A stretch of 21,707 nt of DNA. Origin: Thermotogota bacterium (GTDB lineage Bacteria > Bipolaricaulota > Bipolaricaulia > UBA7950 > UBA9294). The notes below the pieces were generated by a model. It worked only from the letters and a program-made list of their open reading frames with translations, did no database searches and was not told the origin of the DNA. The first letter of the stretch is position 1; every line of letters begins with the position of its first letter. Location: positions 1-21,707 of the forward strand of contig JBDKUT010000092.1 in NCBI GenBank assembly GCA_039679545.1, written 5' to 3'. A program made the translations under genes and the position numbers. Positions 2,026 through 19,123 of the stretch are shown piece by piece.

Positions 2026-3990
2026 ATGAACAGAGCACTTGTGGCCGCAATGGTCGCCGTCCTCACAACGGTGTCCGCCGTGTCTTGGGCCGTTGTCGCG
2101 GAGGATCACGGGAACTCACCTCTCACGGCGACGCCGATCGAGCCGACGGGAACGCGTTTGCCCGGGTGCATCGAGCCGACGGGGGACATGGACTACTTCC
2201 TCTTCCAAGCCGTAAAGGGCCGCGTGTACCGGCTCCTGACAAGCCACCTTTCAGCGGGAATGGACAGCGTCCTGTACCTGTTCGCGTCGGACGGCCAATC
2301 CATCTTGTTGGTGGATGACAACTCCGGTGGCAGTGGGGCATCCCGCATCGAGTGGACGTGCTCGGTGTCGGGTACGTACTTCGCCATGATCCGGCACGCG
2401 GCGCCGTCTACAGGAACCGGCTGCTACGACTTCAGCGTGTCCCTTCTCGAAACCGACGACCACGGCAACGACGCGCTGACTGCGACCTCCATCGCTCCAG
2501 GCGACGCGGCAACATCGGGGTTCATCGAGACGCCGAGTGACATCGACGCATTCCTCTTCCCCGTCCGCCAAGGGTACCGCTACTCCATCGTTCTCACTCC
2601 CTTGACGGCCGGCCGACAACCTGCAATCCGTCTTTCCGGCGCGGTGGGCGAGACGGACTGGGGCACCACCGAGCCCGCGATGTGCACTGCCGTTCAAGAC
2701 GGCGCCGCGTTTGCCTTCGTCTCGTTCCCCAACGGAGGAACCGGCGGGTACGAACTCCGCGTGGTTGAAGACGGGTACTCCGACGATCACGGAGACGCGC
2801 CGGCGACCGCAACCCCTTTGGAGGCGGACGGAGCCACTCTGCGAGGAGCGATCGAGGTGCACGAGGACCAAGACTGGTTCTTGTTGGCGGCACGACAAGG
2901 TGCGGAGTACCACGTGACCGTAACTGCCGAGGAGCCGGTCCGACTGTCCATGATCGCCGCCGACGGCGCCACTGTCCTCAGAGAGGAGGTCGGCAGCACA
3001 GGAACCCCGATCCAGATTGAGTGGACGGCACCCGCCGACGGCTCGGTGTTCCTCTCGCTCGAGATGCCGGATGAGGCTGGAACCTACGAGCTCACGGTTT
3101 CGTCTACGCTGCAGCTGCAGCTTCTTGGGTTCCTCAACCCGCAGGGGTACACCCTGGACGTCGCGGCGCGGAACTCAACCGCCTACGTCGTGGTCGGCAC
3201 CAAAGGCCTCCTGATCGTGGACACGACAGACCCCGCGCACCCTCGCGAGATCGGCTCTCACAGCACGCGTGGCTACGCGCAGGGCGTGACCGTCGACGGG
3301 GATTTCGCGTACGTCGCCAACCGCGGCGACGGCCTGACCATCCTCGACGTCTCGGATCCGTCCCGCCCGTTCGAAGTGGGATTCCTCGACACGCCGGGAT
3401 CCGTTCAGGACGTCGCCGTACAGGCGGGAATCGCCTACGTCGCCGACCAACGCGGGGGACTCCAGATCGTCGACGTGTCCCACCCTGAATCGCCGCGGTT
3501 TCTCGCCACGTTCGACACCGAGGGCTACGCGGAAGCGGTTGCCTGCGCGGATGGCGTCGCGTACGTCGCCGCCGGCGACGCAGGCCTGGAGCTCGTCGAC
3601 GTCTCCAACCCATCAGCACCCGCGGCTCTGGGGTCGATCGACCTGCGCGGGGACGCGAGCGACGTCGTCGTATCCGGCGGATGGGCGTACGTCGCGGCCG
3701 GGTTCCGCGGGATTCGCGTCGTCGATGTCCGAACGCCCGCGGCGCCGGTGGAAGCCGGCGCCGTGAGCACCACGGGAGAAGTCCGAGGCCTGGCCCTCGC
3801 GCGGAACTTCCTCTACGCGGCCCAGCGGACCGAGGGACTCGCCGTCTACTCGCTCGCCGATCCGACGCAGCCCGAGCTCGTCGCCGCCCTGGACACCGCG
3901 GGCGAGGCGCTCCACGTCGCTGTGACGAGTGCCGTAGCGTATGTCGCGGATCGGGAGAAGGGCCTCGAGATCGTGCAGCTGTTCCGGTAG
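2026..3990 (+). CDS. Secreted protein with three PPC-like (pre-peptidase C-terminal) domains and a C-terminal LVIVD-repeat beta-propeller
   Basis: Sec-type signal (MNRALVAAMVAVL...). Three domains begin (E/D)DHG(N/D)xxxTAT and contain DxDxF. Seven ~42-aa repeats match G.a.dVav.g..AYVA....GL.ivDvs.P..P. RBS AGGGAG upstream. Confidence 0.85.
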   Translation: MNRALVAAMVAVLTTVSAVSWAVVAEDHGNSPLTATPIEPTGTRLPGCIEPTGDMDYFLFQAVKGRVYRLLTSHLSAGMDSVLYLFASDGQSILLVDDNSGGSGASRIEWTCSVSGTYFAMIRHAAPSTGTGCYDFSVSLLETDDHGNDALTATSIAPGDAATSGFIETPSDIDAFLFPVRQGYRYSIVLTPLTAGRQPAIRLSGAVGETDWGTTEPAMCTAVQDGAAFAFVSFPNGGTGGYELRVVEDGYSDDHGDAPATATPLEADGATLRGAIEVHEDQDWFLLAARQGAEYHVTVTAEEPVRLSMIAADGATVLREEVGSTGTPIQIEWTAPADGSVFLSLEMPDEAGTYELTVSSTLQLQLLGFLNPQGYTLDVAARNSTAYVVVGTKGLLIVDTTDPAHPREIGSHSTRGYAQGVTVDGDFAYVANRGDGLTILDVSDPSRPFEVGFLDTPGSVQDVAVQAGIAYVADQRGGLQIVDVSHPESPRFLATFDTEGYAEAVACADGVAYVAAGDAGLELVDVSNPSAPAALGSIDLRGDASDVVVSGGWAYVAAGFRGIRVVDVRTPAAPVEAGAVSTTGEVRGLALARNFLYAAQRTEGLAVYSLADPTQPELVAALDTAGEALHVAVTSAVAYVADREKGLEIVQLFR

Positions 3991-4040: not shown

Positions 4041-7000
4041 CTACCGCGGACCGGTTAGATCCTCGGACACGGTGTCCGAGCGGTCGGTTCCGTTCTTCTC
4101 GAGGGTGTTGCCGTAGCCGGCAACGAGCGACGCCGGGTCCGCGAACACTCCGAACCCGAGGTTTCCCGAGATCGTGTTCTCGCGAACCGACGCGATCGAC
4201 GTCTCCAGATGAAGACCATCCAGCCCTTGATCGGCGATCGTCGACAACGCCAGAGACAGCACGGACTGGTCGAACAGCCCGATTCCGTGCCCCTCGTTCC
4301 CCGAGACCGTCGCGTTGCGCAGGGACGCGGCCGACGCGCGGACCGACAGCCCCGACTTCAGGTTGTCGGCGACCGTCGAGCCAATCATGAGGAGAGCGGA
4401 CCTCTCGGCAAGACTCACGCCGACTCCGGCGTTCTCCGAAATCGACGTGTCATCCAACAGAGCGGCCACCGACCGAGTCAACGAGAGCCCGCCCAGGCCG
4501 TTCGACGCCACGAGCGTGTCGAGAGCCATGAACGCCGTTTGGGCCACGGCCTCGATGCCCCAGCCTTTGTTGTCGCGAATCGTGCTCCCGCTGAACGACG
4601 CGGGGGAATTGTCGAGCACAACGCCGGACGCCGGATGCTCTGACACCGTCGAGTCGAGCATCGTCACCGTCGCGTTCGACGTGTGGATCGCCACGTCTCC
4701 GTTGGCTCGAATGATCGATCCTGCAGCGATCACCGCCGAGCTGTCGACCAAGTCGAGCGCATACGACGCGTTCTGACTCACCGTGCTCGCGGAGACCGTG
4801 ATCTGGGAGTTCGCCGCGGCAATTCCGATTCCCTGGTTGCTGGAAAGCGAGCTTCCAACCAACTCCAGGGACGCTCGATCCAGGCGAATGCCGTCCGTCG
4901 GGTGTCCCACGATCGTCGTGTCGTCAAATGCGATGGTTGACAGCACGGCGACGGCCCCCGGTCCTTTGTTGCCTTCGATCCGCGAGCTCCGGACGTCGGC
5001 GCGGGAGTCGGCGAGGTCGAGCGCCGTCGCCCCGTGCTGCCGGATCGTCGTCCCGGAGACGGCCACTGTACCGCCCACCGCCGCGATGGCGCGAGCGCTG
5101 TTCTCGTACACCTCGCAGTCCTGCAGATCCACCGAGCTCTGGTCAAGGACGATCGCGTCCTTCGGATGCTTCGTCACCGAGCTCCCAACCAGCGTGACGC
5201 GGGATTGCGCCGCGGCGTCGACCGCCGATTCGCCGTTTCCCGAGAAGAGACACGTCGCTGCGGTTACCGATGTCGCCGTCACGTGGAGCGCGTCGCCTCG
5301 GTTGCCCGTCATCGTGCACCCCTGCAGCGAGCTCTTCGACGATGCCGCTTGCAGCGCGTCCCCGCCGTTGTCGCGAATCGTCGCGTCGCGCAGCTTGGCC
5401 GAGCTGTTGGAGAGAACGACGCCGTCATCGGTGTGCCCAAAGATGACGCTCCCCTCGGAGAGGTTCACAATCCCTTGCTCGGCGACGATGCCGTTGGCGC
5501 CGTTCCGCTCGAGGTTGCTTCCGGTGGCGTCCACCGCCGAGTCCAGCATCCGAATCCCGCCGGCGTTGTTCGAGACGACCGTGGACGAGATCAGCTCGCA
5601 CGTCGTCCCGCCGCTCCCCTCGACTCCCCAGCCTCGGTTCCCGCTGATCTCGCTGTCCGTCGCTTCGGCGTCCGTTTGCGCAAGGGTGAGTCCGTTCCCG
5701 GGGTGTCCGGAGACGACGGTCGCGTCGAGGAGGATCTTCCCGTTCGCGGCTTCGATCCCGACGGTTCCGTTGTCGCGGATCTTCGAGTCGCCGGACTCCG
5801 CCGAGCTGGAGTCCAGCTTGACCCCCGCGGCCCCGTTGCCGGCGATCGAGCACGCGGCCAGTTTCAGCTCGCTGTTGTCGGTCGCCGCAATCCCGCACAG
5901 CCGGTTGTCTTCGACCTTCGTCAGCTCGAGGTCGGCCTTGCTTCCCTGAAGCCGAAGGCCGTCCTTCGGGTGATCGACGATCTCCGAGTTCGCGATTTGG
6001 AGGCTTGTCGCCTGGGCATCAATGCCGTAGCCCGTATTCGCCGCGACGGTGCTCCCTCTGATCTCCACGGAGGCTCCACGGAGCACGACGCCGCTCGACC
6101 CGTTCCCATCGATAGTGCTGCCGTCCACAATGCGCAGGGCGCAGTTCGTTCCGCGGACTCCCTCGGTTTGGTTCGCGCCGACTCGGCTCGCGCGGACGTC
6201 GGCCGACGAGTCGAGCAGAGAGAGACCACCTTGAGGATGACCGGTGACGGACGTGCTCACGAGCGTGACGCGCGACCGCGCTTTGGCGTCGACGCCGACC
6301 GTCCCGTTGTCGCCGACCGCTCCGCCCTCGATTCGCACCTGAGTGAAGTCGAGCCGCAGTCCGCCCTCGACGTTCGCTTGGATCGTGCTGTTGAGGAACT
6401 CCGCTCCGGACGACGTTCCGTGCAGGCCAAGTCCGCCGTTCTTCGAGACGTCAAGACCCACGGCGTTGAGAGACGCCTTGGCGAGCAGGATCCCGTGCGA
6501 GCCGTTCGCGCGGACGGCGCCCCCGTTCACGGCGGCCACCGAGTGCTCCGCCCGCAGGCCCACGCCTCCGCTTCGCTCGATCGTCGTCTTCTCAAGCCCG
6601 GCGGCCGCGTTCTCCAGCACGAGTCCGTCCTTCGGATGATCGGCGACCAGGCAGTCGACCAGCGAGGCCGTCGAGTCCACCGCGTAGAGCCCTTCCTCGC
6701 CGTTCTCGATGACCTGTGACGCGGTGAGATCGGCCGTCGAGTTGGCAAGGTCCAGGCCTCGTTTCGCGTTCCCGGCGACCTTCGTCGTCGCGAGCACGAC
6801 CGTGGAGATCGTGCCGGCGATTCCGTGCCCGCCGCTCGTGAGGACCTCGCAGTCGAGGAAGTCCCCCGAGCTGTTGGCAAGCCGCACGCCGTCGTCGGGG
6901 TGCTCGGCAATCGTCGTTTCCGTCGCCGTTACACTCGAGTTGCTGTGGCCGTAGATCCCATGGATGCCGTTCCTACGGATCTCCGAGCGCAGGATGTCCG

Positions 7001-9023
7001 CCAGCGCATGCTCGAGGAGTACGCCGTTCTGGGTGTTATCGTGAACCTCGCTGTCAGAAAGCGCAAGCCGCGAGCCGAGCTCGGATACCCCCTCGAGGCG
7101 ATTCGAGAACACCTCCGTCGTGGCCACTTGCGCCGAGCTGCGCTCCATCCGGATTCCGTTCAGCGGGTGTTCGGAGACCGCCGACCCCGAGATCCGCGCC
7201 TCGGCGTCAAGGAGCGAGACTCCGTTTTCCCCATTGGCTCGCACCGTGCTGTCCGACATCTCCACGAAGCTCTGCTCCGCAAGGAGCCCGTTCGCGGTGT
7301 TCTCCAGGATCTCCGAGGCGTTCCGAACCGTGAGGGTCGAGTCGGCGATCGCGTAGAGCCCCTGTCCCCCGTTCTTCTCCACGAGGCTCGCATCGACAGT
7401 TCCCGTCGACGCCTCGAGGAACATCCCCTGGCCGACGTTGTTCGCAATCGTCGAGTGATCGGCCACGGTCACAACCGACGCCGCCTGCGCGTGCACTCCG
7501 TGGGCACCGTTGTTCGTCACCTGGCTCGCGAGGATTTCGACGCGCGACACGTCCGCCAGCACGCCTTCGGCCGCGTTCCCCGCCACGGTACTGGCCGTAA
7601 GGCTTCCCTCGGCACCCGTCGCGCTCACGCCGTGACGCTCGTTCGCGCGCACTTCTGAACCTTCGAGAGCGCCCACCGCCGACTCAATCCGCATTCCGTC
7701 AATCCCGTTGTCCGAGACGGCGCAGCCGTTCCGAACTTCGCCGCGCCCACCGCCGTACACGTAGACGCCGTAGCGAACGTTGGCTCGGACGGTCCCGCCG
7801 GCGATCGCGGCCGTCGAGGCGTCAACCGTGACTCCGTCGACGGCGTTCTCGAAGACCGCGGAATCCGCCACCTCACTTGCCCCACCCGCCTCGACAAGAA
7901 CGCCCGAGAGCCCGTTCTTCGAGATCGTCGAGGACGCGACGCGTGCCCTTCCGCCGTTCACGTGGAGTCCCTGGGCAGCGTTCTCGGACAGCGTGGAATC
8001 GGAGATGGAGGCCGAGGACAACGTCGTCACCGACACCCCGTCGCTCCCTTGGTTCGTGACCAACGTGCTCGTGACAGCAACGTCGCTGTGGTCGGAGATA
8101 AGAATGCCGAAGCCGGCGTTTCGGACGATCGTGCTGGCCGACACGCCCCCCGTTGAGCGAACGTACATGACGGCCGCGTCAGGATGCCCGCTGATCGTCG
8201 CGCCCTCTACGTTCAACGTGGCGTCATCCCCGCGCACGCCAACCCCTCGATTGTCGACGACCTGCGCGCTTCCCCGCAGCGTGAACGTGGCTCCCGTGAC
8301 GAACACTCCTCCCGTGCCGTTGTCGGAGATGCGCGTCGGCGTCTTCCCCTCGGCGAACCGAACGGTCGCCGCACCGTCGACCACAATGCCGTAGCCTGTG
8401 TTCGCCGTGAACTGGGACGCCTCGATGTCGGCCGAGCCGGAGTGGATAGCGATCCCGCCCGCATTTCGACTCAGGGTGCACGCGGACATCACGAGCTTCG
8501 CGACGCTCGCCGTCTCACCGCCCAATTCCACGCCCCACCCTGCGTTGTCGGCAATCTCGCAGTTCGTCAGCGTGAAACCGCCGCCGCGCAGTCCGGCATT
8601 CGAATTCCCTTGGACGACGCAGCCGTTCAGAGTCACGCTCGACGCCGAGTCCAGTTCAATCGCCACGGTCCCGCCCTGCACCGTCAGATTCTCGATCACG
8701 ATCCCCGTGCAGTTCTCGAACCGGAGCACCGGCGCCCCTGCGTCACGTCCGGAAATCGCGATCGTCCGTTGCGTATCCGGAGCCGCGTATACCATGACGT
8801 TCTTCTTGTCCTTCACGACGACCGTCTCGCGGATCGATCGCGAGATCTCGATCTTGCCCCCGACCGAGACCTGTCGAAACGCTTGGGCCAACGAGAGTAC
8901 AGTGTCAGGGACCACGATCCCTCGCCTCACGTCGCGGTCCGCTTGCCCAAGTCCCATGACGCACAAGGCCAAGACCCATCCGAGAGCTACGCAGAGAACG
9001 GTTCCTCGGGATGCCGAACGCAT
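4041..9023 (-). CDS. Giant secreted right-handed parallel beta-helix repeat protein (PbH1/NosD-like), 1660 aa
   Basis: Signal peptide MRSASRGTVLCVALGWVLALCVMGLG, a typical beta-helix cap (IVVPD..SLAQA...GGKIEI...ETVVV), then about 70 tandem 22-23-aa coils of the form NxxxGvxlxxsxaxixxsxixx. ATG at 9023 is preceded by GAGGAGG. Confidence 0.88.
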   Translation of the reverse strand: MRSASRGTVLCVALGWVLALCVMGLGQADRDVRRGIVVPDTVLSLAQAFRQVSVGGKIEISRSIRETVVVKDKKNVMVYAAPDTQRTIAISGRDAGAPVLRFENCTGIVIENLTVQGGTVAIELDSASSVTLNGCVVQGNSNAGLRGGGFTLTNCEIADNAGWGVELGGETASVAKLVMSACTLSRNAGGIAIHSGSADIEASQFTANTGYGIVVDGAATVRFAEGKTPTRISDNGTGGVFVTGATFTLRGSAQVVDNRGVGVRGDDATLNVEGATISGHPDAAVMYVRSTGGVSASTIVRNAGFGILISDHSDVAVTSTLVTNQGSDGVSVTTLSSASISDSTLSENAAQGLHVNGGRARVASSTISKNGLSGVLVEAGGASEVADSAVFENAVDGVTVDASTAAIAGGTVRANVRYGVYVYGGGRGEVRNGCAVSDNGIDGMRIESAVGALEGSEVRANERHGVSATGAEGSLTASTVAGNAAEGVLADVSRVEILASQVTNNGAHGVHAQAASVVTVADHSTIANNVGQGMFLEASTGTVDASLVEKNGGQGLYAIADSTLTVRNASEILENTANGLLAEQSFVEMSDSTVRANGENGVSLLDAEARISGSAVSEHPLNGIRMERSSAQVATTEVFSNRLEGVSELGSRLALSDSEVHDNTQNGVLLEHALADILRSEIRRNGIHGIYGHSNSSVTATETTIAEHPDDGVRLANSSGDFLDCEVLTSGGHGIAGTISTVVLATTKVAGNAKRGLDLANSTADLTASQVIENGEEGLYAVDSTASLVDCLVADHPKDGLVLENAAAGLEKTTIERSGGVGLRAEHSVAAVNGGAVRANGSHGILLAKASLNAVGLDVSKNGGLGLHGTSSGAEFLNSTIQANVEGGLRLDFTQVRIEGGAVGDNGTVGVDAKARSRVTLVSTSVTGHPQGGLSLLDSSADVRASRVGANQTEGVRGTNCALRIVDGSTIDGNGSSGVVLRGASVEIRGSTVAANTGYGIDAQATSLQIANSEIVDHPKDGLRLQGSKADLELTKVEDNRLCGIAATDNSELKLAACSIAGNGAAGVKLDSSSAESGDSKIRDNGTVGIEAANGKILLDATVVSGHPGNGLTLAQTDAEATDSEISGNRGWGVEGSGGTTCELISSTVVSNNAGGIRMLDSAVDATGSNLERNGANGIVAEQGIVNLSEGSVIFGHTDDGVVLSNSSAKLRDATIRDNGGDALQAASSKSSLQGCTMTGNRGDALHVTATSVTAATCLFSGNGESAVDAAAQSRVTLVGSSVTKHPKDAIVLDQSSVDLQDCEVYENSARAIAAVGGTVAVSGTTIRQHGATALDLADSRADVRSSRIEGNKGPGAVAVLSTIAFDDTTIVGHPTDGIRLDRASLELVGSSLSSNQGIGIAAANSQITVSASTVSQNASYALDLVDSSAVIAAGSIIRANGDVAIHTSNATVTMLDSTVSEHPASGVVLDNSPASFSGSTIRDNKGWGIEAVAQTAFMALDTLVASNGLGGLSLTRSVAALLDDTSISENAGVGVSLAERSALLMIGSTVADNLKSGLSVRASAASLRNATVSGNEGHGIGLFDQSVLSLALSTIADQGLDGLHLETSIASVRENTISGNLGFGVFADPASLVAGYGNTLEKNGTDRSDTVSEDLTGPR

Positions 9024-9162
9024 GACGACCTCCTCGCTACTCTGTTCCACGGCGGCCGGAGGCGGTCGAACGACAGCTCGCGCCGCGCCCGCCGAGAACT
9101 GCGCCGCTCTCTAACCTACCCGCCACGCCCCCGGTAGTTCCGCTCAAGGCGCCATATCTCTG

Positions 9163-9204: not shown

Positions 9205-9253
9205 CTCCCATGCAATCGATGAACACGCTGAAACAATGCAGGAGGTGCCACAG

Positions 9254-10645
9254 GTGTTGGCATTGGGGATAAGCCGAAGGGTGACGCCAGTTCTAGTGCT
9301 CCTCGTCATAGCGCTCACGGCACCCGGCATGGCGTCGGCCGGGCCATCGCGGACGATCAGTCCGTCCGAGGCGATCGAGCTTGCAGTCGAAAACGACTCG
9401 CAGCTCCGCGAGGCTGAGCTCAACCTCAGCCTGGCGACGCTCGAACTTGAGGCCGCGCGGGTCTCGACGGTGTTGCCGGCCGTTGGACTCGCCGTCGACC
9501 TCCCGAAGCTCACGGCGGCCGGACTCGGCCAGGAGATCGCCGCCTCCTTGACGGCCTCTCTCTCTCTTCCGTGGGGAGATGGGACCCTCACCGGAGGCTT
9601 GGGCTTCAGCTACAACGCTGCGACCTCCGAGCTCGTCGCGCCGACATGGCAGATCTCTCTGGCGGACGTCCTCGACCTCGCCCGGCCGAACGCGGCGGCG
9701 GAGAGAATCCAGTCACTCACGTGGGCCGTCGAGAGCGCCCGGCGCTCGTACGCGTCGGCCAAGGCGGATCTGGTCATCTCGGCGCTCAAGACCTACGGCG
9801 CGCTTCTCAGCGAGGCGCAGCAAGCCGACTGGGACAGTTCCGCCGTGAGCCGCCTCATGGCCGAGCTTGACCAGGTGAAGGATCTGGCTACGCAGGGGTA
9901 CAAGGGCGACCAAGACGTCAATGAGGCGAAGCTCCTCCTGCTCGACGCGCAAGTGAAGGCCGAGAAGAGTGCCGAAGCGTATGCAGCCGACCTCGAGGCG
10001 TTCTGCCGGACGACGTTGCGCGTCGAGGAGGCGTGTCAGCTCTCCTCGATCGACGTGTCGATGAGTGACCTTCTCGCGGCCGCGCGGAGCCTCCGCGAGA
10101 GCGAGAGCCCGGAAGGCGCCATCTCCGGCGCGTCGGCCGTGATCGCCGCACAGCAGAGCGTGGCCACCGCCGAGGACGACCTTCGCGAGGCCCGCGCCAA
10201 CATGCTGCCCTCCGTATCCGTTGAGGCGACGCTCAACTCCGAAGAGTGGTCCCTCGGCGTCGGCCTGTCGCTTGACCTCTTCGACCCAAGCGGGAAGACC
10301 AATGTTGAGATCGCCGAGACGGACCTCGAGCTGGCGAAGGAAAAGCTGGACTCGGCCCGCGAGACCGTGCGGGACGAGATCCTGAGTCTGAAGGCATCCC
10401 TCTTATCGTCCGTCCGTAGCGCAGAGAGCCTCACGCTAGAGACCGAGAAGTGGCGGCTCGAGGAGCAGGTCATGACGGCCAAGCGCGCGGCCGGCAGCAT
10501 CTCCGACTCCGATTGGGCGCAGTTCCTCGAGGAGAAGGGCGCCTTCGAGATCGATGCGGCGGGGCGCGCCACATCGCTGCTTGTCGCGCACCTCATGTAT
10601 CGCAACGCCCTGGGAATGGAGCTCAACTGGGAGGAATGGCTGTGA
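9254..10645 (+). CDS. TolC/outer-membrane efflux (OEP) family protein
   Basis: Signal peptide followed by ISPSEAIELAVENDSQL. Two OEP-like halves (…LPAVGL… and …ARANMLPSVSV…WSLGVGLSLDLFD…) with long helical heptads. First gene of an exporter operon. GTG at 9254 follows GGAGG at 9241-9245. Confidence 0.8.
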   Translation: MLALGISRRVTPVLVLLVIALTAPGMASAGPSRTISPSEAIELAVENDSQLREAELNLSLATLELEAARVSTVLPAVGLAVDLPKLTAAGLGQEIAASLTASLSLPWGDGTLTGGLGFSYNAATSELVAPTWQISLADVLDLARPNAAAERIQSLTWAVESARRSYASAKADLVISALKTYGALLSEAQQADWDSSAVSRLMAELDQVKDLATQGYKGDQDVNEAKLLLLDAQVKAEKSAEAYAADLEAFCRTTLRVEEACQLSSIDVSMSDLLAAARSLRESESPEGAISGASAVIAAQQSVATAEDDLREARANMLPSVSVEATLNSEEWSLGVGLSLDLFDPSGKTNVEIAETDLELAKEKLDSARETVRDEILSLKASLLSSVRSAESLTLETEKWRLEEQVMTAKRAAGSISDSDWAQFLEEKGAFEIDAAGRATSLLVAHLMYRNALGMELNWEEWL

Positions 10646-11679
10646 AGATCAAACGAAAGACTTGGAAGATCATCGCTGTGGGGACCGCGGTGGCCGTCGT
10701 AGTAGTGGTCGCTCTCGTCCTCTTGCTCAATCGTTTCGGCAAAGAGGAAGAGACGGCTACGGCCCAGACGTTCACAGTGAAGCGCGGCGACGTCAAGAAC
10801 AGCCTCGTCGTGTACGGAACGGTCCAACCGAAGCAGGAGTACACGTTCACGTTCGACGGGGATCTGGTCGACGAAATGCTGGTGAGCGTCGGGACCCGCG
10901 TGACCGAGGGACAAGCCCTCGTCAGGCTCGATCCGTCCCAGCAGGAGTTGGCTCTCCTCCAGGCTGAGCGAGCGCTCGCCGAAGCCAAGGCGGGCGGAGT
11001 CCGGGCCGACGTCAAAGAGAAAGAAGTCGCGCTGAGAATCGCCCAAGCCAACTACGACAACGCCACGCTCAAGGCCCCGTTCGCCGGCGTCGTGACCGAA
11101 ATCAACCAGGCGACGGAGTCGTCAGGAAGCTGGAGTCTCCTGCTGATTGACACGAGCGAGCTGTACCTCGAGGTCGAGATCGACCAACTGGATGCCCCCT
11201 CCGTCGCGGTGGGGCAGTCCGCGACCGCCGTGATCGAGCCCCTTCCCGACAACACGTGGGACGTCAAGATCACCGAGGTCGCCGGCATGGCTGAGGAAGT
11301 GGGAAACAGCACCGTCGTCGTCGCGAAAACGAGCTTCCCGTACTTCGATTCGCGCGTCCTCGTGGGGTACACAGTCGAGATGGAGATCACGACGGCCTCG
11401 GCGACCAACGTTCTTCTCGCGCCGATCTCTTGCCTGACCGAGACGCCGCGCGGATGGATCGTGATGAAGGTCGCGAATGGACAGGCGACGCCTCAGGTCG
11501 TCACGGTCGGCGTGAAGTCGGACACCTACGCCGAGATCACGAGCGGCCTCAAGGAGGGCGATGTGCTTCAGAGCGTCGCGAGATCCGCAGCCGGCAGCAC
11601 CACGACACAGCAGAGTAACGGGTTCCCGGGTGGCGGCATACCGATGGGCGGATTTGGCGGCGGGCCCGGGATGCCTTAA
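10642..11679 (+). CDS. Efflux periplasmic adaptor (MacA/HlyD/YknX-like membrane fusion protein)
   Basis: N-terminal TM anchor, VKRGDV...VYGTV, lipoyl halves (VSVGTRVTEGQAL / LKAPFAGVV), short alpha-hairpin, EITSGLKEGD, Gly-rich tail. GTG overlaps the tolC TGA, with GGAGG 7 nt upstream. Confidence 0.9.
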   Translation: MKIKRKTWKIIAVGTAVAVVVVVALVLLLNRFGKEEETATAQTFTVKRGDVKNSLVVYGTVQPKQEYTFTFDGDLVDEMLVSVGTRVTEGQALVRLDPSQQELALLQAERALAEAKAGGVRADVKEKEVALRIAQANYDNATLKAPFAGVVTEINQATESSGSWSLLLIDTSELYLEVEIDQLDAPSVAVGQSATAVIEPLPDNTWDVKITEVAGMAEEVGNSTVVVAKTSFPYFDSRVLVGYTVEMEITTASATNVLLAPISCLTETPRGWIVMKVANGQATPQVVTVGVKSDTYAEITSGLKEGDVLQSVARSAAGSTTTQQSNGFPGGGIPMGGFGGGPGMP

Positions 11680-11684
11680 CCATC

Positions 11685-12368
11685 ATGATCGAACTCAAGA
11701 ACGTCACCAAGGACTACCCGATGGGTGAACTCGTCTACCACGCGTTGCGCGGGGTCACGTTCAACATTGAGGAGCATGAGTTCGCCGCGATCACCGGGGC
11801 GTCGGGCTCGGGCAAGTCGACCCTGCTCCACATCCTGGGGGCTCTGCATCGCCCTACCTCGGGAGAAGCACTGTTTGACGGAGAGAACTTCGGCGTGATG
11901 TCGCGCGAGGACCTGTCGAGAATCCGCAATGAGAAGATCGGGTTCATTTTCCAGCAGTTCTTTCTCCTCCCTCGCGCGACCGCTCAGGCGAACGTCGAGC
12001 TGCCCCTCGCCTACGCCGGAATTCCCCGGAAGAAGCGGACGGAGATCGCTCACGTGTGTCTGGAGCGCGTTGGACTCGCCGACTTCGCGGAGCACCGTCC
12101 AACCCAGTTGTCGGGCGGCCAGTCGCAACGCGTGGCGATCGCCCGGGCCCTCGCGAACTCGCCACGCCTCATCCTCGGGGACGAGCCGACGGGAAACCTC
12201 GACAGCCATACCACAAAGGAGATCATGGCCCTGTTCCACTCGCTCCACGACGAGGGCAGGACCATCGTTCTGGTCACCCACGAACAGGAGATCGCGCAGG
12301 TCACGAAGCGTGAGATCATCCTCAAGGACGGGCTCATCGCGGAGGATAAGACCCATGGGACTGCATGA
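11685..12368 (+). CDS. MacB/LolD-family ABC transporter ATP-binding protein
   Basis: Walker A GASGSGKST, IGFIFQQF, signature LSGGQSQR, Walker B LILGDEPTGNLD, H-loop LVTHE. Confidence 0.95.
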   Translation: MIELKNVTKDYPMGELVYHALRGVTFNIEEHEFAAITGASGSGKSTLLHILGALHRPTSGEALFDGENFGVMSREDLSRIRNEKIGFIFQQFFLLPRATAQANVELPLAYAGIPRKKRTEIAHVCLERVGLADFAEHRPTQLSGGQSQRVAIARALANSPRLILGDEPTGNLDSHTTKEIMALFHSLHDEGRTIVLVTHEQEIAQVTKREIILKDGLIAEDKTHGTA

Positions 12369-13581
12369 GATGCTGCGGACCGCCGTCACGGCGCTCCGCG
12401 CCCACAAGATGCGGACGACGTTGTCCGTCCTCGGGATCGTCATCGGCGTCGCCGCCATTGTCGCGATCATCGCGATCGTCAACGGAGCGACAGCCTCGAT
12501 GAAGGAGCAGATCTCCGGACTCGGCATGCGAACGATCAACGTCATGATCTTCCCGAATGCGCTCTCTGCCGCCTCTTCGGCGCGAGCGCTGACCGATGAA
12601 CTGACGAGCCGGTTCGAGACCCTGCCGGACGTCTCCAAGGCGGTTCCGACGTCATCCTCGAACGCGAGGGCCGTCATCAACGGCGAGGAGTACTCGACCT
12701 CGGTTGCGGGGGTCGTTCCCGAGTACGCGGAGCTGTTCGACAACTTCTATCCGACAAGCGGCCGATTCATCTACTCGATGGATGAGAACCGCCGGGTTGT
12801 CGTCCTCGGCTCGGAGTTCGCCGCGGAGTACTTCCCCGGGGAAGACCCGGTCGGAAAGAGACTGACGCTCGAGATCTCGAGCCAGACCCTTGCGTTCACG
12901 ATCATCGGCGTGATGTGCGAGGCGGGGACCGTGGGCATGCAGGACCTCGACGACACGGTCTACGTGCCGCTCTCAACCATCCAGACGCTCTCAGGATCGC
13001 GCCAGTTCACGTCGTACATCGCCCAGGCCAAGGATGAGACGTCCGTCGACGCTGCCGCGGAGGAGATCGAGGGAGTCCTAAAGGAGGTCATCTCGACCTC
13101 AACGACCACCCAGACGAGCAACTCGCGCAGTCGGACTCCTTATCGCGTGACGCTCCAGCAGCAGTTTATCGAGACGTACGAGTCGACCGTGGGGACAATG
13201 ACGTTCATCCTGGGTGGCGTGGCGGCGATTGCGCTTCTCGTGGGCGGCATCGGGATCATGAACATCATGCTCGTCTCGGTGACCGAGCGAACCCGCGAGA
13301 TCGGGATCCGGCTCGCAATCGGAGCGCGGCCCAAAGACATCCGGACGCAGTTCCTCGTCGAGGCCGTCATGACGAGCTCAATCGGCGGGCTGATCGGCCT
13401 GGGCGCCGGGTGGTTGTGCGCGTGGCTCGGAGCGCTGTTCGGCGATTGGCCGTTTGTCATGTCCGTCTACCCTGCGCTCCTCGCGGTCGGGTTCTCGTTC
13501 CTGATCGGCGTGACGTTCGGCCTCTACCCGGCCGTGCGGGCCGCCAAGCTCGACCCCGTCGAAGCGCTGCGATACGAATAA
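12355..13581 (+). CDS. MacB/FtsX-family ABC transporter permease
   Basis: MRTTLSVLGIVIGVAAIV, a large periplasmic domain, GGIGIMNIMLVSVTERTREIGIRLAIGA and YPAVRAAKLDPVEALRYE. ATG at 12355 follows GGAGG and overlaps the ATPase gene. Confidence 0.95.
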   Translation: MGLHEMLRTAVTALRAHKMRTTLSVLGIVIGVAAIVAIIAIVNGATASMKEQISGLGMRTINVMIFPNALSAASSARALTDELTSRFETLPDVSKAVPTSSSNARAVINGEEYSTSVAGVVPEYAELFDNFYPTSGRFIYSMDENRRVVVLGSEFAAEYFPGEDPVGKRLTLEISSQTLAFTIIGVMCEAGTVGMQDLDDTVYVPLSTIQTLSGSRQFTSYIAQAKDETSVDAAAEEIEGVLKEVISTSTTTQTSNSRSRTPYRVTLQQQFIETYESTVGTMTFILGGVAAIALLVGGIGIMNIMLVSVTERTREIGIRLAIGARPKDIRTQFLVEAVMTSSIGGLIGLGAGWLCAWLGALFGDWPFVMSVYPALLAVGFSFLIGVTFGLYPAVRAAKLDPVEALRYE

Positions 13582-13585
13582 CACG

Positions 13586-13615
13586 GGGCGGAGAGGGCCA
13601 CACCCCTCTCCGCCC
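13586..13615. terminator. Hairpin between convergent operons
   Basis: 12-bp perfect stem GGGCGGAGAGGG / CCCTCTCCGCCC with loop CCACAC, 4 nt after the permease stop. Confidence 0.7.
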
Positions 13616-13644: not shown

Positions 13645-14922
13645 CTAGCCCGCGGGCTTCCAGGCCGGGTCGAAGATCCTCAGGTTGTCGAATCGAACGG
13701 TCGTCGTGCCGTCGAAGTTCACAACACAAAGGGCCAACGTTCCATTCAGGGGAATCGAGACACCGAGCGTTCCAGGCGTTGCGCCGTTGAACGAGATCTG
13801 CGCGTTCCGCTTCACGACGTCGATGAGAATTCGATTCGCGACGTCCTTCCCTTCCTTGAGGTTCGACGACGGCGTCCACTGTCCCGCCAGCACCCAGCTC
13901 GAGTTCCCTCCGGGGGCCTGCTTGAAGACGCCGTAGTTGCCCTCGTTGTCAATCAGAACCATGAAGCTCCACTGGCTCGTATCGTCCTCGGACGGGAAGA
14001 ACGCAAGCCCTGCCGCGCACCCCTTGGTGCACGTCGAGAAGAGGACCTCGACTTCGAACGAGGGGCCCGACGCCTCGGCCGGGCACTCTACGAAGTCCAC
14101 CGTTCCCTTCTCCTTCACGGCAACTTCGGCATACCCCGCCTCGTTCCAGTAGTCTGCAACCCACTCGCGGGATTGCGTGAACGGCTCCTTGTACTCGCCG
14201 TCCTGCACATACACGTCCGACCACTCGACGTACACCACCGCAGGCGTCGCGGCCGCCACGATCTCCCGCGACGTGAGCACCGTGTCTGCCGTCGAGACGG
14301 TCCACCCCACGACGTGCTTCGTCACCAACTGCGCCGCCAGGTTAATCGGAACCAAGAAGCTGACCCCCTCGACCTCTTCGCCGACGATCTTCGACGTGAC
14401 GATGCCGACGGCCCGGCCCATGGCATCGAGAGCCGGTCCCCCACTGTTCCCGGGGTTCACGGCAGCGTCGATTTGGAGCATCTCCGGCGAGTCCTTGATC
14501 TTCCGGAACGCCGTGATGTTGCCGCCGGTCACATTCAAGCTCACGCCAAGCTCAAACGAGAGGGGATACCCGAGGACGACAACCTGATCGAACAGCTGGA
14601 CCTGATCTGAATCCGCAATCGGGATCGTCGGAAGCCCCGACGCCTCGATTTTCAGGAGCGCGGCGTCATACCCACCCTCATCGGTGGTCGGGGAGTAGTC
14701 GACGACGCGCGCCTCGTGCTTCGTCCCGTCCGACAGCGTGATCGTGATCGGGCCGGTCGCACCCTCAACAACATGGTAGCTCGTGAGGATGTACCCGGAC
14801 GAAGCCACGATGAAGCCTGTGCCGCTCGTCGGGTACGTCTGAGCTACAGTACTTACGGCGACGATGCTCAGGGCAACGAGCAAGCTTGCGGCCGCGGCGA
14901 CGACGCTTCGGTCTCTGGTCAT
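13645..14922 (-). CDS. Secreted S1C/HtrA-like trypsin serine protease without PDZ, with a C-terminal ConA-like/DUF1080-like beta-sandwich
   Basis: Signal peptide, SGTGFIV, TSYHVV (His), YDAALLKI (Asp), QIDAAVNPGNSGGP (Ser). The C-terminal all-beta domain ends NRILIDV...ISFNG...GTLAL...VRFDNLRI. ATG at 14922 follows GGAGGGG. Confidence 0.88.
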   Translation of the reverse strand: MTRDRSVVAAAASLLVALSIVAVSTVAQTYPTSGTGFIVASSGYILTSYHVVEGATGPITITLSDGTKHEARVVDYSPTTDEGGYDAALLKIEASGLPTIPIADSDQVQLFDQVVVLGYPLSFELGVSLNVTGGNITAFRKIKDSPEMLQIDAAVNPGNSGGPALDAMGRAVGIVTSKIVGEEVEGVSFLVPINLAAQLVTKHVVGWTVSTADTVLTSREIVAAATPAVVYVEWSDVYVQDGEYKEPFTQSREWVADYWNEAGYAEVAVKEKGTVDFVECPAEASGPSFEVEVLFSTCTKGCAAGLAFFPSEDDTSQWSFMVLIDNEGNYGVFKQAPGGNSSWVLAGQWTPSSNLKEGKDVANRILIDVVKRNAQISFNGATPGTLGVSIPLNGTLALCVVNFDGTTTVRFDNLRIFDPAWKPAG

Positions 14923-14998
14923 TGCTGATCCCCTCCACACGGAAGCCTTCTCCTATTCTAGCCTAGGAATGACACCGCATCTACGCGCGACGGGCTCG

Positions 14999-16195
14999 CT
15001 ATCGAATCCGGAATGCGCGAACTCCAAGCACCGGCCCGGCGCCCCCGAAGTCGAAAGCGATCGTCGCTTGGTAGATGCCCGCAGGCAGTGGAACGCTTGA
15101 AACGTCTACCAGCGTGATGACGCGGACGCTGCCCGGAAGGATGCGGAAGTAGTCTCGCCCCGATTCCTCGAACCGCAGAGTTCGAACGACCGTACCGTTT
15201 CGATCCACAATCTGGGCCTCACAGACCACGATCAACTGGACGTTCCCCGTGTTCTCAAACGCCGCCTGAAGTGAGAGCGGATCAGCGACGGTCTGTTGGA
15301 TGTCAATGACTTTGCCCTCGGCCTTCTCGGTACCCGGGGCGGTGACGAACAGCTTCAGCCCGACGGTCGGGCGCGCGACGATCTGTGTGCCGGCGACCTC
15401 TCCGAGTGCCACGGGGCGGCTCTCGGCTTGGATGATGCTCCAGTATGTCCCCGAGAACTGCGTCGGTGTCCTCACGGTCGCGCGGATCTCCGTGCTCTGA
15501 CCCGGTTGAAGCGTCACTTCGTCCCGCGAGAGACTGATCCACGAAGAGCAGGAGCGGTTGACGGTGTCGAAGGTTCCGCCTCCACACTCCCCACATGAGA
15601 GCTCGACGCGCTCGCTGTACGTTTCCACGATCGTTAGTCCGTCGAAGTCCGAAGTCGGACGGATCGACAGCGCAACCGTGGCCTCGCCCTCTGGGGTTAC
15701 GGATTCGACGGTTCGAGTGACAAGAGCAGGAGCCGCACCGAGCGCGCCCGTCGTCGCAGGAGCGCCGCCGGGGACCTCGGACGCGCCCGCAATCGTGCCC
15801 GCAAGGTGTGGAGACCAGCTCTGATACGTGCCTTCCACCGACACAGGAGCCCCCCGCGGAAGGCGTACTGCGTAGCGCACGGTCACAACCTCGCCTGCCC
15901 CAAAAGTCCGATCGAACGTCCATCGCACGCTGTTCGGTGCAATCCCGAGGTCGTTTTGGCCTTCGAGCGTACGCACCCAATCCCAGACGTAGATCCGAAG
16001 CTCCGCCGGCTGTTCGCCGTCGTTGTACAGCGTAAGCACGTACGTCGTCTCGGTGCCCAGCGCCTGGGTGACGTCAAGCTCCGCCGGAGACCAACGAACC
16101 CCGTAGGCGCAAAGAGAGAAGGCTGTCAAAGCTACACCCAACGCGACAACGAGCGCCGCGCCCCTCGCCGCGTCACGGCTTCCTCTCTTCACCAT
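14999..16195 (-). CDS. Secreted PapD-like/DUF916-like (WxL-interacting) two-Ig-domain chaperone with an inserted extra domain
   Basis: Signal peptide, then VRWSPAELDV...LTLYNDG...IYVWDW, SCSSWISL...TLQPGQS.EIR.TV..P....GTYWSII, and FENTGNVQL...ILPGSVR...LPAGIYQA..AFDFG. This is the motif series of non-proteobacterial pilus-chaperone-like proteins. ATG at 16195 lies 10 nt after the upstream stop. Confidence 0.65.
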   Translation of the reverse strand: MVKRGSRDAARGAALVVALGVALTAFSLCAYGVRWSPAELDVTQALGTETTYVLTLYNDGEQPAELRIYVWDWVRTLEGQNDLGIAPNSVRWTFDRTFGAGEVVTVRYAVRLPRGAPVSVEGTYQSWSPHLAGTIAGASEVPGGAPATTGALGAAPALVTRTVESVTPEGEATVALSIRPTSDFDGLTIVETYSERVELSCGECGGGTFDTVNRSCSSWISLSRDEVTLQPGQSTEIRATVRTPTQFSGTYWSIIQAESRPVALGEVAGTQIVARPTVGLKLFVTAPGTEKAEGKVIDIQQTVADPLSLQAAFENTGNVQLIVVCEAQIVDRNGTVVRTLRFEESGRDYFRILPGSVRVITLVDVSSVPLPAGIYQATIAFDFGGAGPVLGVRAFRIR

Positions 16196-16205
16196 CGTCG
16201 TCCCC

Positions 16206-17018
16206 CTAGTCGGTCGAAACGGTGTAGGCAATCGTAATGACGTAGGTTCCCTGCGGCAGTCCCGCGAAGTCCGCCAGATCCACGACGAGGGCGTAGGTGA
16301 CAGCGATGTCGGTGATCCCGGCCGACGCGGTGTGGGTTCCGAGCGACACCCGGAAGATCCCTTCCACCACCGTCTGGGAGGCCTCCGGTGGAATCGAGAA
16401 CTGAGGCAAGTAGGTGAGTGACCATCCCGCGGTCGAGCTGGTGACGCGAAGGACGGTGTCGCTGGTCGCGGGATACGTCCCGGCACCGACGATCTCAGGG
16501 AACGAGATCGACTCCCCCGAGACGATATCGAGGGAGATGGACGCGACTACGCACGCCGGTCCGCCGACCGACCCGGTGAGGATTGCCGGCGGACTTGACC
16601 ATCCCGCCGCCACCCACACGTCCTCGGTGGTCCAGTTTCCCACCAGGTAGATGTAGTACTTCTGATTCCGCGAGCTGCAGGCGAACCTCATGCCTCGGGA
16701 TGGATTTGTCACCCAGGTGTAGTTCGAGGACATGTACCAGATCACGGCGTTGTCATCAACGCAGTCCTCGACTCCGAGAATCCAGTACGAGGGTGCCGAA
16801 CTGCCGGGCGGCGTCGTCACCTGGTAGGTGAACCGAGTGTAGTCTCCCCCCGAGTAGTATTGGACCGAATTCAGCGTGATCGTCGTGCGCCCCAGTTGAA
16901 CTCCGGCGCAGGCGGGTGCGAAGCCGGCGACGCCCATCACCAGGGCAAGTCCAAGAACGAGAAGACGACCAAGACGAGAGGACAGTGCCTCTCCCCATCG
17001 TCCCTCGCTACGTCCCAT
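16206..17018 (-). CDS. Secreted two-domain protein with a C-terminal pilin/WxL/spore-coat-U-like Ig domain
   Basis: Signal peptide (…LLVLGLALVMGVAGFAPACA). The C-terminal domain reads ISLDI...ISF......LRVTSST.GWSLT...VTYAL......LPQGTYVITIAYTVS. ATG at 17018 follows GGAGGAG. The gene sits directly upstream of the chaperone-like gene. Confidence 0.55.
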   Translation of the reverse strand: MGRSEGRWGEALSSRLGRLLVLGLALVMGVAGFAPACAGVQLGRTTITLNSVQYYSGGDYTRFTYQVTTPPGSSAPSYWILGVEDCVDDNAVIWYMSSNYTWVTNPSRGMRFACSSRNQKYYIYLVGNWTTEDVWVAAGWSSPPAILTGSVGGPACVVASISLDIVSGESISFPEIVGAGTYPATSDTVLRVTSSTAGWSLTYLPQFSIPPEASQTVVEGIFRVSLGTHTASAGITDIAVTYALVVDLADFAGLPQGTYVITIAYTVSTD

Positions 17019-17083
17019 GTCCCACGCTCCTCCCCCGGTCGCATTCTCCCGACGGTGAGGATTGTACCTGAGACTCCGTGGCA

Positions 17084-17776
17084 TCAGTCCGTTCTGTCGG
17101 GCGCCGCATCGCTCGGCGCTTCGAACAGGTGACGGAACAAGTACTGCTGGAGCTCGGCCAGACGCTCGAGCGCGGACGCGATGCGGATACGATGCTCAAT
17201 GGGAAAAGCCACCGGGTGCTTGCTTCGGATGAGTTCCGTCCGGATTGTCGGCGCGGGGTCGTTGGCTCGCTGCTCCGCGTCGAGGGACACGTAGCTCAGT
17301 GCTTCCCGCGCTTTGAAGATCTCGACGATTCCCTCTTCCGAGATGTTCACGGCGTCGGCCAGTTCAGCGAGCGTCGGCAGCTTCCCCGTCTCGCGTAGCA
17401 GTCGAGCTTCCGCGTTCTCGATCTGTCGGTTCAGGTCGCTCATCCAGGGAGGAACGCGGAGTTGCTGCTCGCCGCCGCGGATGTGCTGCCGGATCTCGCC
17501 GCGGATGAGGTTCCCCGCGTACTCCCGGAACGGTCGACCGCGGGCGAGTTCGAAGTTGCAAACCGCGCTCAGGAGCCCCAGGTAGCCCGGCCGGAACAGC
17601 TCGTTCGCCCCGTACCCGCTGTGAGCGAACGACTCCGCGATGACCTCATGGATCCACGGCGTTGCTCGGCGAAGAGCCTCCTCCCGCGCGTTCTCGTCCG
17701 TCTTTCCTCGCTCCAAGAGGTCCATCAGGTCGTCCGGATCATGCCCTGCCGCACGTCGCCGGTCGTCGGTCGTCAT
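17084..17776 (-). CDS. SigB/SigF/SigG-like sigma-70 family protein, regions 2, 3 and 4.1 only (no region 4.2 HTH)
   Basis: AREE (region 1.2/2.1), GYLGLLSAVCNFELARGRPFREYA...IRGEIRQHIR (region 2), RVP...ETGKLPTLAELADAVNISEE...VSLD (region 3), and PIEHRI..ALERL..LQ..LF..LF (region 4.1), followed by a stop. Confidence 0.85.
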   Translation of the reverse strand: MTTDDRRRAAGHDPDDLMDLLERGKTDENAREEALRRATPWIHEVIAESFAHSGYGANELFRPGYLGLLSAVCNFELARGRPFREYAGNLIRGEIRQHIRGGEQQLRVPPWMSDLNRQIENAEARLLRETGKLPTLAELADAVNISEEGIVEIFKAREALSYVSLDAEQRANDPAPTIRTELIRSKHPVAFPIEHRIRIASALERLAELQQYLFRHLFEAPSDAAPDRTD

Positions 17777-17778
17777 GG

Positions 17779-18951
17779 TCAGATCACGAAGTGGAAGCCG
17801 AACGTCACCAGTTCAATTCCCGTGAAGTCGAACTCGGTGTGCGTGAACAGGACGACGCCCGAGAAGCTGACCTCCGCGCAGACACGCTGCTCCGCGAACC
17901 CACCGGCGTCGAACGCGGTCAGGCTCGCGAATGTGACCGGCCCGATCGCCGCCTCGATGCCGATCAGCTCCTGACTGAACAGGAATGCGTCATCAAAATC
18001 CGTCGCACTGCTCACCACCACGCCACACACCGCAAACGACACGCCGAAGCGCTGTCCGTCGAAGGCGATCGGGATCACCGTCGGCACGACGGAGGCGGCG
18101 AACATCGTCTGCGACGTGAAGCGTACGGTCTCGATCTCGAGGTCGAGGATGAACCCCGCCGCGACAATGCCGAACGAGCCGTCAAGGGTCATCGTCGTCA
18201 GGAAGCGAAGGGACGGATCGTCAAACCGATACCCGAGTTCGAACAGCATCGTGGCAAGTCCGTAGGCGTCGAACCACGTCGTGCTGCTCGCCATCATCCC
18301 CAGGTAGTCCACTTCGAGCCGAACCAGCTCCTCCTCGAAGTAGAAGCCGTCAACGATCGTCACGTCGAGGTCCACGTCCTCCTCGCACAGGGTGTCGACG
18401 TGTTCCAACACGCAGAGCAGTTGGTGCGAGAACGGAGCCTCGATCCCGTCGAGCAGGTTCACAAGGTCCGTGGCGCCGAACCCCGTTAGACTCGCAATCG
18501 AGAACCCGCAGGCAATGCTGCTCGCCAGCCTGAAGACGGTTCCCATGCTGTAGGAGGGGGTCTGAGGGCCGCCAATGTCGGCGAAGATCCAATCCATTCC
18601 GATCTCGATTCCCACGATCGAAAGGTTGAACGACAGGTCGTTCCAGGCGAAGTACGGCTCGAAGCGAATCTCTTCCGCGATTCGCACGGCGCCGAGATCG
18701 ACCCCGATCGTCATGCACTCCGAAGAAAATCCCGCCAGGTTGAACTCAGTCTCCGACACCAGGCTCACTCCGCTGACGGCGAACCCGAGCGTGAGATCCG
18801 AGGTGATGTCGTAGGACGCCGGAGGCACCGGAGCGTACGTGACCTCCAGCCCGATGTCGGCCGAGAAGCCGAGGTCCCCCGCCGCCGCAACCCCGCTCGC
18901 GGCGACGAGCAGGGCAATCAGTGCCGCCCACTGCGCGCACATCCGATGCAT
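17779..18951 (-). CDS. Secreted probable outer-membrane beta-barrel protein of unknown function
   Basis: Signal peptide (MHRMCAQWAALIALLVAASGVAAA), amphipathic alternating strands in ~27-aa hairpin repeats, and an aromatic-rich C-terminus TFGFHFVI. ATG at 18951 follows GGAGGAGGA. Confidence 0.6.
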   Translation of the reverse strand: MHRMCAQWAALIALLVAASGVAAAGDLGFSADIGLEVTYAPVPPASYDITSDLTLGFAVSGVSLVSETEFNLAGFSSECMTIGVDLGAVRIAEEIRFEPYFAWNDLSFNLSIVGIEIGMDWIFADIGGPQTPSYSMGTVFRLASSIACGFSIASLTGFGATDLVNLLDGIEAPFSHQLLCVLEHVDTLCEEDVDLDVTIVDGFYFEEELVRLEVDYLGMMASSTTWFDAYGLATMLFELGYRFDDPSLRFLTTMTLDGSFGIVAAGFILDLEIETVRFTSQTMFAASVVPTVIPIAFDGQRFGVSFAVCGVVVSSATDFDDAFLFSQELIGIEAAIGPVTFASLTAFDAGGFAEQRVCAEVSFSGVVLFTHTEFDFTGIELVTFGFHFVI

Positions 18952-19123
18952 GTGTCCTCCTCCCAAGACGGACGGTCCTGGCTCGCTCCCCAAGCGTAGG
19001 AACCGGAAGGGAGGCTCGGGCGGAAATGCGACAGAGACGGGACGTGGATTCGTCACCGCCTGGGAGGACACCTGTACCGTGCGTCCCGCGGCGGAAAGCG
19101 ACGCGCGCTCGAGCGGTGCTGCG

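Follow-up and report, generated by a model that had tools for sequence, protein, structure and literature searches.

A subunit and a WxLIP-like chaperone in a Bipolaricaulota envelope operon as candidate parts of a donor-strand pilus

The DNA analysed here, referred to as the window, is a 21,707-nt stretch of a Bipolaricaulota genome (assembly GCA_039679545.1, contig JBDKUT010000092.1). Its positions 13645-18951 hold five genes that an earlier, sequence-only reading had proposed to form a single surface-assembly system. In the order of transcription, they encode a 22-stranded outer-membrane β-barrel of 390 aa (17779-18951), a 230-aa homologue of SigB/F/G-type sigma factors with regions 2 and 3 but without the region 4.2 helix-turn-helix (17084-17776), a two-domain secreted subunit of 270 aa that is a likely tip adhesin (P0003, 16206-17018), a soluble two-domain WxLIP-homologous chaperone of 398 aa (P0004, 14999-16195) and a secreted trypsin-like serine protease of 425 aa (13645-14922). 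All five open reading frames lie on the minus strand with gaps of 2, 65, 10 and 76 nt, as the sequence-only reading had it. Its four signal peptides are also plausible by hydropathy alone, the best 11-residue Kyte-Doolittle values of the N-termini being 2.6-2.8, compared with -0.4 for the sigma factor. We compared this genome (G000, 93.6% complete, contigs denoted by C-numbers) with its relatives in a set of 101 genomes that includes it. We put at roughly 60% the probability that the subunit and the chaperone are a satellite adhesin-chaperone pair of a donor-strand pilus, with a large usher-like barrel encoded elsewhere in the genome. On this reading, two of the five genes are likely parts of a system for building fibres that occurs across the phylum and has not been described before.

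The chaperone had been likened to PapD, but its profile is far nearer to that of WxLIP. A profile of 50 homologues aligned with EfmWxLIP1 (PDB 9I25) over positions 32-261 of 262, covering both domains (E 3.2e-9). A second profile, of 62 distant homologues, matched WxLIP1 with an E-value of 5.4e-11, compared with 0.004 for EcpB, the best chaperone-usher chaperone. PF06030 was matched by 13/50 and 20/62 members of the two sets and PapD_N (PF00345) by 1/50 (E 0.001) and 0/62, the individual Pfam scores of the chaperones lying under the curated cut-off. A C-terminal transmembrane-like stretch was present in 0/50 and 1/62 of them, in agreement with the anchorless chaperone described earlier; an actinobacterial DUF916 control scored 2.3. 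Because of the WxLIP profile match and the missing transmembrane stretch, P0004 is, by sequence, a soluble WxLIP homologue. An actinobacterial match to the chaperone was a transmembrane-anchored DUF916 protein without a barrel. In 24/50 homologues the N-terminal domain (domain 1) contains an insertion of ~120 residues that may be a permuted DUF11-like immunoglobulin-like (Ig) domain. Relatives of P0004 occur in 69/101 genomes, and a 50%-identity library yielded 867 representatives at E<=0.001, with Limnochorda pilosa and Ca. Aerophobetes among the 20 that were looked up.

P0003 was matched in 19/101 genomes, all within the family of the window. Its C-terminal ~110 residues are homologous to stand-alone secreted proteins of 140-175 aa, including its own paralogue on C36 (E 2e-15), and one to four of these small subunits per locus stand in front of chaperones. 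The N-terminal domain of P0003 has two invariant Cys residues and recurs on C124, within a protein of DUF11/DUF7507 repeats. This two-domain build is likely to be a tip-adhesin layout. Near the mature N-terminus, 21/49 small subunits have an alternating hydrophobic stretch ending in W or F, compared with 5.5 in shuffled sequences, the pattern having been picked post hoc, after the alignment had been inspected. The stretch resembles the WxL donor consensus as given in a WxL preprint (10.64898/2026.10.17.759780).

Riboswitches for cyclic di-GMP (c-di-GMP-I) were found 5' of small subunits in 6/8 sources scanned, and none inside the window. In this genome, C15 ends with a tandem riboswitch pair and has a 13-nt overlap with the start of C36, where a subunit gene comes next; in G003 the riboswitch-subunit arrangement is contiguous. 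This second chaperone locus (C15:36000-47786 and the start of C36) is divergent from the tandem riboswitches and the major subunit. It contains PAS/GGDEF/EAL-like, HAMP/GGDEF-like and subtilase-like genes, a chaperone with a dockerin-like tail, a subunit and a β-helix protein, the domain labels other than the riboswitches being read from sequence. At C124:24169-27673, a riboswitch-like c-di-GMP sequence (a pattern match alone) precedes an operon whose last gene encodes a DUF11/DUF7507/Ig repeat protein that shares the N-terminal domain of P0003.

The usher family PF00577 had no match in this genome or in any other of the 101 (the same search gave a match in E. coli), which bears out the earlier statement that no canonical usher is present. 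A family of large barrels of ~900-1,000 aa is found in 89/101 genomes and in 51/53 high-quality ones, and neighbourhood maps place its gene 3' of many chaperones. NEW3, SdrD_B and carboxypeptidase-regulatory domains occur in 22/22 aligned members and PKD domains in 20/22. This genome has two copies, C133:8507-11200 and C72:14532-18077. The C133 copy is preceded by a paralogue of the chaperone and by two small secreted proteins. Its predicted structure (predicted local distance difference test, pLDDT, 87.9; predicted template-modelling score, pTM, 0.63) has two N-terminal Ig domains, 26 contiguous strands (221-654) and two C-terminal β-domains, with no inserted plug. The top nine Foldseek matches were FimD chains (E 1e-16 to 6e-13), and PapC was also among the best whole-protein matches. 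An Atlas search returned unnamed outer-membrane barrels and, as a lead only, an usher cluster at 0.84. As modelled, the large barrel is usher-like in layout. The locus of the C72 copy (L114:1826-12078) contains a 2,019-aa alpha-2-macroglobulin, a 134-aa gene and the multi-PKD large barrel, and is kept in many genomes of family f1 without a chaperone nearby.

Linkage was counted from match coordinates. We used the best small-barrel match in 70/86 genomes (16 with weak matches only were dropped) and 94/101 chaperone rows (7 weak fragments were dropped), merged split large-barrel matches and omitted short fragments; the counts are lower bounds because of contig breaks. The large barrel lies <=4.5 kb 3' of 45/94 chaperone matches and occurs in 65/69 chaperone-bearing genomes, and several families have the gene order subunits-chaperone-large barrel. 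For 34 of these 45 pairs, no listed orthologue of the small barrel lies upstream, and at least one of them (in G082) has diverged paralogues there. A chaperone is found <=9 kb from the small barrel in 21/70 loci. Among these 21 relatives, the large barrel is in the locus in 11 and elsewhere in the genome in 10, including this genome. Outside the genome set, a plasmid search gave six records, four of them from Deinococcus. All three Deinococcus plasmid loci viewed have one or more subunits, a chaperone and then a protein of 839 to 1,058 aa. These proteins match the large-barrel profile mainly via the Ig domains, and for D. deserti only via the barrel part as well. The Deinococcus operons (L134-L136) sit in cultured species and are annotated mostly as hypothetical.

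Together, these results suggest a pathway in which the subunits would cross the inner membrane via Sec. A donor strand of the chaperone would complete the Ig fold of the subunit, as has been demonstrated for enterococcal ElrE, and the chaperone-subunit complex would dock on the Ig domains that the large barrel (the C133 or C72 copy) has in the periplasm. N-terminal strand exchange would polymerise the subunits, with passage through the 26-strand pore. The shaft would be built from 140-175-aa subunits, the main one being encoded behind the tandem c-di-GMP riboswitches. The 270-aa protein would cap the fibre tip, because its extra N-terminal domain replaces the donor strand. Strand complementation, docking, polymerisation and the tip position are all drawn by analogy from the WxL and chaperone-usher pathways. 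No secretin was found in a search of this genome, and this system therefore gains weight as a candidate for pili.

Several observations weigh against this reading. The Foldseek TM-scores of the large barrel to FimD are only 0.28-0.32. By barrel geometry, for which Foldseek's own matches were re-scored for both barrels, MtrB is best (Z 19.9, root-mean-square deviation (rmsd) 5.2, 397 aligned), and FimD and PapC (Z 16.4 and 16.3) are level with AlgE and Occ porins. With TM-scores so low and other barrels scoring equally or higher on geometry, homology to ushers is not established. The model also lacks a mid-barrel plug, which is a defining feature of ushers. The large barrel could serve other cargo, since many f1 copies adjoin alpha-2-macroglobulin without a chaperone. 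The subunits matched neither the WxL family (PF13731) nor the Csu families (0/50) and no pilin in the PDB, and their profile gave an hhalign probability of 2% against one actinobacterial DUF916-linked subunit. Finally, there are at least three families in which the small barrel precedes pilus genes, so that a functional tie between the two is possible.

The system may make no long pili at all. WxL clusters have long been regarded as surface platforms or adhesin displays. The chaperone, subunits and large barrel could likewise form a short, static platform of this kind, or the chaperone paralogues could themselves be structural. Dockerin or EF-hand tails on some chaperones (Dockerin_1 matched 18/50 homologues), fusions of others to a subtilase-like or PKD domain and the many PKD repeats of some large barrels are consistent with such a display, as is the account by Hao et al. 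(PMC6092417) of one genome with no pilus genes by annotation and PilFind. We nevertheless regard a static platform as unlikely, given the several small-subunit paralogues per locus, their alternating N-terminal strands and the c-di-GMP control. The homologous WxL system, moreover, has been shown to polymerise (10.64898/2026.10.17.759780), and the first member of the phylum to be isolated was seen to bear pili (10.1101/2025.11.21.689855).

A donor-strand pilus with a distant large barrel leaves the first two genes of the window's operon to be explained. Neighbourhood analysis does not support the claim that the five genes are one system: the sigma gene lies directly 3' of the barrel gene in 58/70 loci, and the barrel is accompanied by a chaperone in only 21/70. 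The best reading is that the small barrel and the sigma factor lacking region 4.2 form the stable core of an envelope (toga) operon of their own, with pilus genes behind it in some lineages. The small barrel was matched in 86/101 genomes. Its predicted model (pLDDT 94.3, pTM 0.86) has 22 strands, in line with the earlier estimate, and a helical loop (139-163) between strands 9 and 10. The model starts with strand 1 and has neither an N-terminal plug nor a periplasmic domain. The best geometric matches are TonB-receptor barrels minus their plugs (Z 19.8, rmsd 3.7, 319 aligned), with the alignment beginning at target residue ~134-160, so that the plug of TonB-dependent transporters has no counterpart here. 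A general porin ranked first in Foldseek, and the Atlas clusters were Bipolaricaulota hypothetical proteins only, plus a Porin_4 lead at 0.84. Pfam and NCBIfam gave no match for the small barrel or the subunits, and a profile comparison of the small and large barrels found no similarity (probability 5%). The barrel is ~40 kDa in size, and 27/40 homologues end in Phe. The odds that it is a toga or envelope porin are about even. In Thermotoga, the toga consists of ~42-kDa barrels held by coiled-coil proteins (PMC3387000 and PMC10160955), and the toga of the first Bipolaricaulota isolate has a hexagonal lattice, with pili at its ends (10.1101/2025.11.21.689855). On C20:1589-3874 of this genome, its SLH-domain gene is followed by a weak small-barrel paralogue (E 7e-4), which resembles the Thermotoga ompA-ompB pair.

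The barrel gene is preceded by a conserved promoter region (18993-19075, minus strand), made up of the box ACAnnTGTCC-N11-GAC(A/G)AA (19075-19049), a spacer of exactly 50 nt and a TAnnnT -10-like hexamer (18998-18993). A sigma-70 consensus scan found no promoter. The box was present upstream in 30/38 barrel loci, compared with 0/822 other gene starts, and its distance to TAnnnT is 50 nt in 28/30 and 51 nt in 2/30. A whole-genome scan found the box with TAnnnT in 32/61 genomes, including 30/36 family relatives; the reversed control gave 0. At 30 loci, one per genome, the pattern was followed by a barrel gene in 15 cases, by a gene for a secreted coiled-coil protein with a hydrophobic tail in 11, by a lipoprotein gene in 3 and by another gene in 1. 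In this genome, the pattern occurs at window positions 18993-19075 (-), at C8:13727-13809 (-) and at C103:13942-14024 (+). One of the three promoters drives the barrel-sigma operon, and the others drive a 208-aa lipoprotein and a coiled-coil protein that is secreted and has a hydrophobic tail at its C-terminus.

The sigma factor had been called headless. The C-terminal region 4.2 helix-turn-helix is indeed gone, and the description can be refined in that regions 2 and 3 are kept. The protein matches the SigB/F/G profile (TIGR02980) over positions 2-189 of 227 (E 5e-29), and a full-length paralogue on C110 of the same genome matches positions 3-226. In 29/29 readable copies (one further copy was masked), the barrel-linked sigma factors end 16-34 residues past the first region-4 helix motif, compared with 68 for the paralogue. 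By its sequence, the protein is likely to act either as a -35-independent sigma factor or as a decoy, with core polymerase or an anti-sigma factor as its target. We considered the truncated sigma factor as the reader of the promoter box and rejected it, because the complete genome G068 has the box before its barrel with no adjacent sigma gene and no sigma match at 1e-30. The sigma factor is probably an output of the box. In a literature search, from which most subscription papers fell outside coverage, we found no publication on such a region-4.2-less sigma factor.

The two parts of the locus could still be joined in function, with the large barrel exporting the fibre, the truncated sigma factor controlling the pilus genes and the 22-strand barrel anchoring the base of the fibre in the toga. 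The order barrel-sigma-subunits-chaperone-large barrel occurs in families f1 and f6 and, minus the sigma gene, in f5 and f8, which suggests an old linkage. We consider this arrangement improbable, since most loci have the barrel-sigma pair without pilus genes, the promoter box is common to the coiled-coil/transmembrane protein and the lipoprotein and not to pilus genes elsewhere, the pilins have their own riboswitches, and in G068 the box precedes a barrel without such a sigma factor. The original proposal, in which the five genes are self-contained and secretion runs through the 22-strand barrel instead of an usher, is very improbable: co-orientation and short gaps, a lumen of TonB-receptor size, a barrel <=9 kb upstream of the chaperone in those 21 loci from several families and the missing PF00577 speak for it, but the small barrel has no periplasmic domains on which chaperone-subunit complexes could dock, its f6 homologues are ~60 residues shorter and may be short of ~4 strands, a large usher-like protein is encoded in 21/21 barrel+chaperone genomes, 49/70 barrel loci have no chaperone nearby (a number inflated by contig breaks) and the protease occurs in 3/101 genomes. 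The earlier idea of a fimbrial or adhesin module thus stands in part: most likely, the pilin-like gene and the chaperone are components of a fimbrial assembly module not described so far, without the minimal barrel as a substitute for the usher.

The protease is trypsin-like (E 2.5e-29) and has the His, Asp and GNSGGP motifs. Its C-terminal domain was found in only three of the 101 genomes, all of the window's genus, at odds with its proposed membership of the system. In G004 the protease follows the barrel-sigma pair, with neither subunit nor chaperone, and in G002 the pair stands by itself. It is a recent, genus-restricted passenger or insertion. A role as a dedicated quality-control factor was rejected.

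A 12-bp hairpin (13586-13615, strand not assigned) lies between the convergent stops of the protease and an ABC-permease gene and is a likely terminator. On its 3' side is a convergent TolC/HlyD/MacAB-type exporter operon (9236-13581, plus strand), followed by genes for a right-handed β-helix protein of 1,660 aa (4041-9050, minus strand), a PPC/LVIVD repeat protein (2026-3990, plus strand) and a papain-like peptidase (856-1773, minus strand). On the 5' side of the five-gene operon are genes for a DUF1015 protein and a 2-hydroxyacid dehydrogenase, in the same direction.

Taken at its widest, the analysis points tentatively, and at somewhat less than even odds, to a third class of donor-strand pilus in Bipolaricaulota, Deinococcota and other deep-branching diderms. 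Such a class would have a soluble chaperone of the WxLIP type and an usher-like pore of 26 strands without a plug, and would link the WxL and chaperone-usher pili. In Bipolaricaulota it would be switched by c-di-GMP and build the pili at the toga ends, and here an adhesin-chaperone pair would be wired into a toga regulon with a sigma factor unable to read a -35 element. If so, the WxL class would be extended by soluble WxLIP homologues that diderms pair with an usher-like pore outside PF00577, and a testable bridge between both pathways would be at hand. Pilus genes were reported to be missing from Bipolaricaulota (PMC6092417), yet the isolate is piliated (10.1101/2025.11.21.689855), and the present system, which most of the searched genomes contain, is a concrete candidate. 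The Deinococcus plasmid copies, being in cultured organisms, offer a usable experimental model. Two separate oddities, each open to checking, are the conserved region-4.2-less sigma factor and the envelope promoter box shared by three genes. Our literature search found no publication on this diderm system; most subscription papers and preprint supplements lay outside its coverage, and the supplement of the WxL preprint could list diderm matches.

Among known systems, the small barrel is similar in size to the 42-kDa porin of the Thermotoga toga, OmpB/Omp-β, an abundant, trimeric and lattice-forming barrel; the likeness consists of size and co-regulation. The small barrel shares its promoter box with a coiled-coil protein with a hydrophobic tail, and in Thermotoga OmpA/Omp-α is a coiled-coil tether; the co-regulated protein here has no SLH match. 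The sigma factor matches the group-3 sigma factors SigB, SigF and SigG in regions 2 and 3 and differs from them in the missing region 4.2 helix-turn-helix.

The WxL (Elr) pilus of Bacillota such as Enterococcus has a chaperone, ElrE/WxLIP (PF06030 and PF11797; PDB 9I25 and 9I1Y), that is homologous to P0004 over both domains, so that P0004 has the DUF916+DUF3324 two-domain build of this class. The two systems also share a pilin and tip-adhesin layout, in which small subunits whose alternating N-terminal strand ends in an aromatic residue accompany a larger subunit with a C-terminal pilin domain. WxL proteins assemble into pili through strand exchange that the chaperone primes, and the preprint that describes this states that the system is confined to Bacillota, that its chaperones are disjoint from those of the chaperone-usher pathway and that 96.7% of them have a transmembrane helix (10.64898/2026.10.17.759780), compared with 0/50 here. 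The host here is a diderm, and the system has a large outer-membrane barrel as partner. The subunits have no WxL Pfam match (0/50), and no sortase or LPxTG anchor was noticed in the loci viewed, a genome-wide search aimed at it not having been made.

Chaperone-usher pili, whether classical, archaic (Csu) or cyanobacterial, have in common with this system a periplasmic two-domain chaperone and an outer-membrane barrel between N- and C-terminal Ig-like domains. The usher is a plugged barrel of 24 strands with one N-terminal and two C-terminal domains, whereas the large barrel has two N-terminal NEW3 Ig domains and is predicted to have 26 strands and no inserted plug, with PF00577 missing from the whole genome set. 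The chaperone is nearer to WxLIP than to PapD and lacks the PapD_N signature. An usher encoded apart from its chaperone has a reported precedent in Synechocystis (10.1101/130278). By analogy, the system would work like a chaperone-usher or a WxL pilus, yet by these features it appears to belong to neither class.

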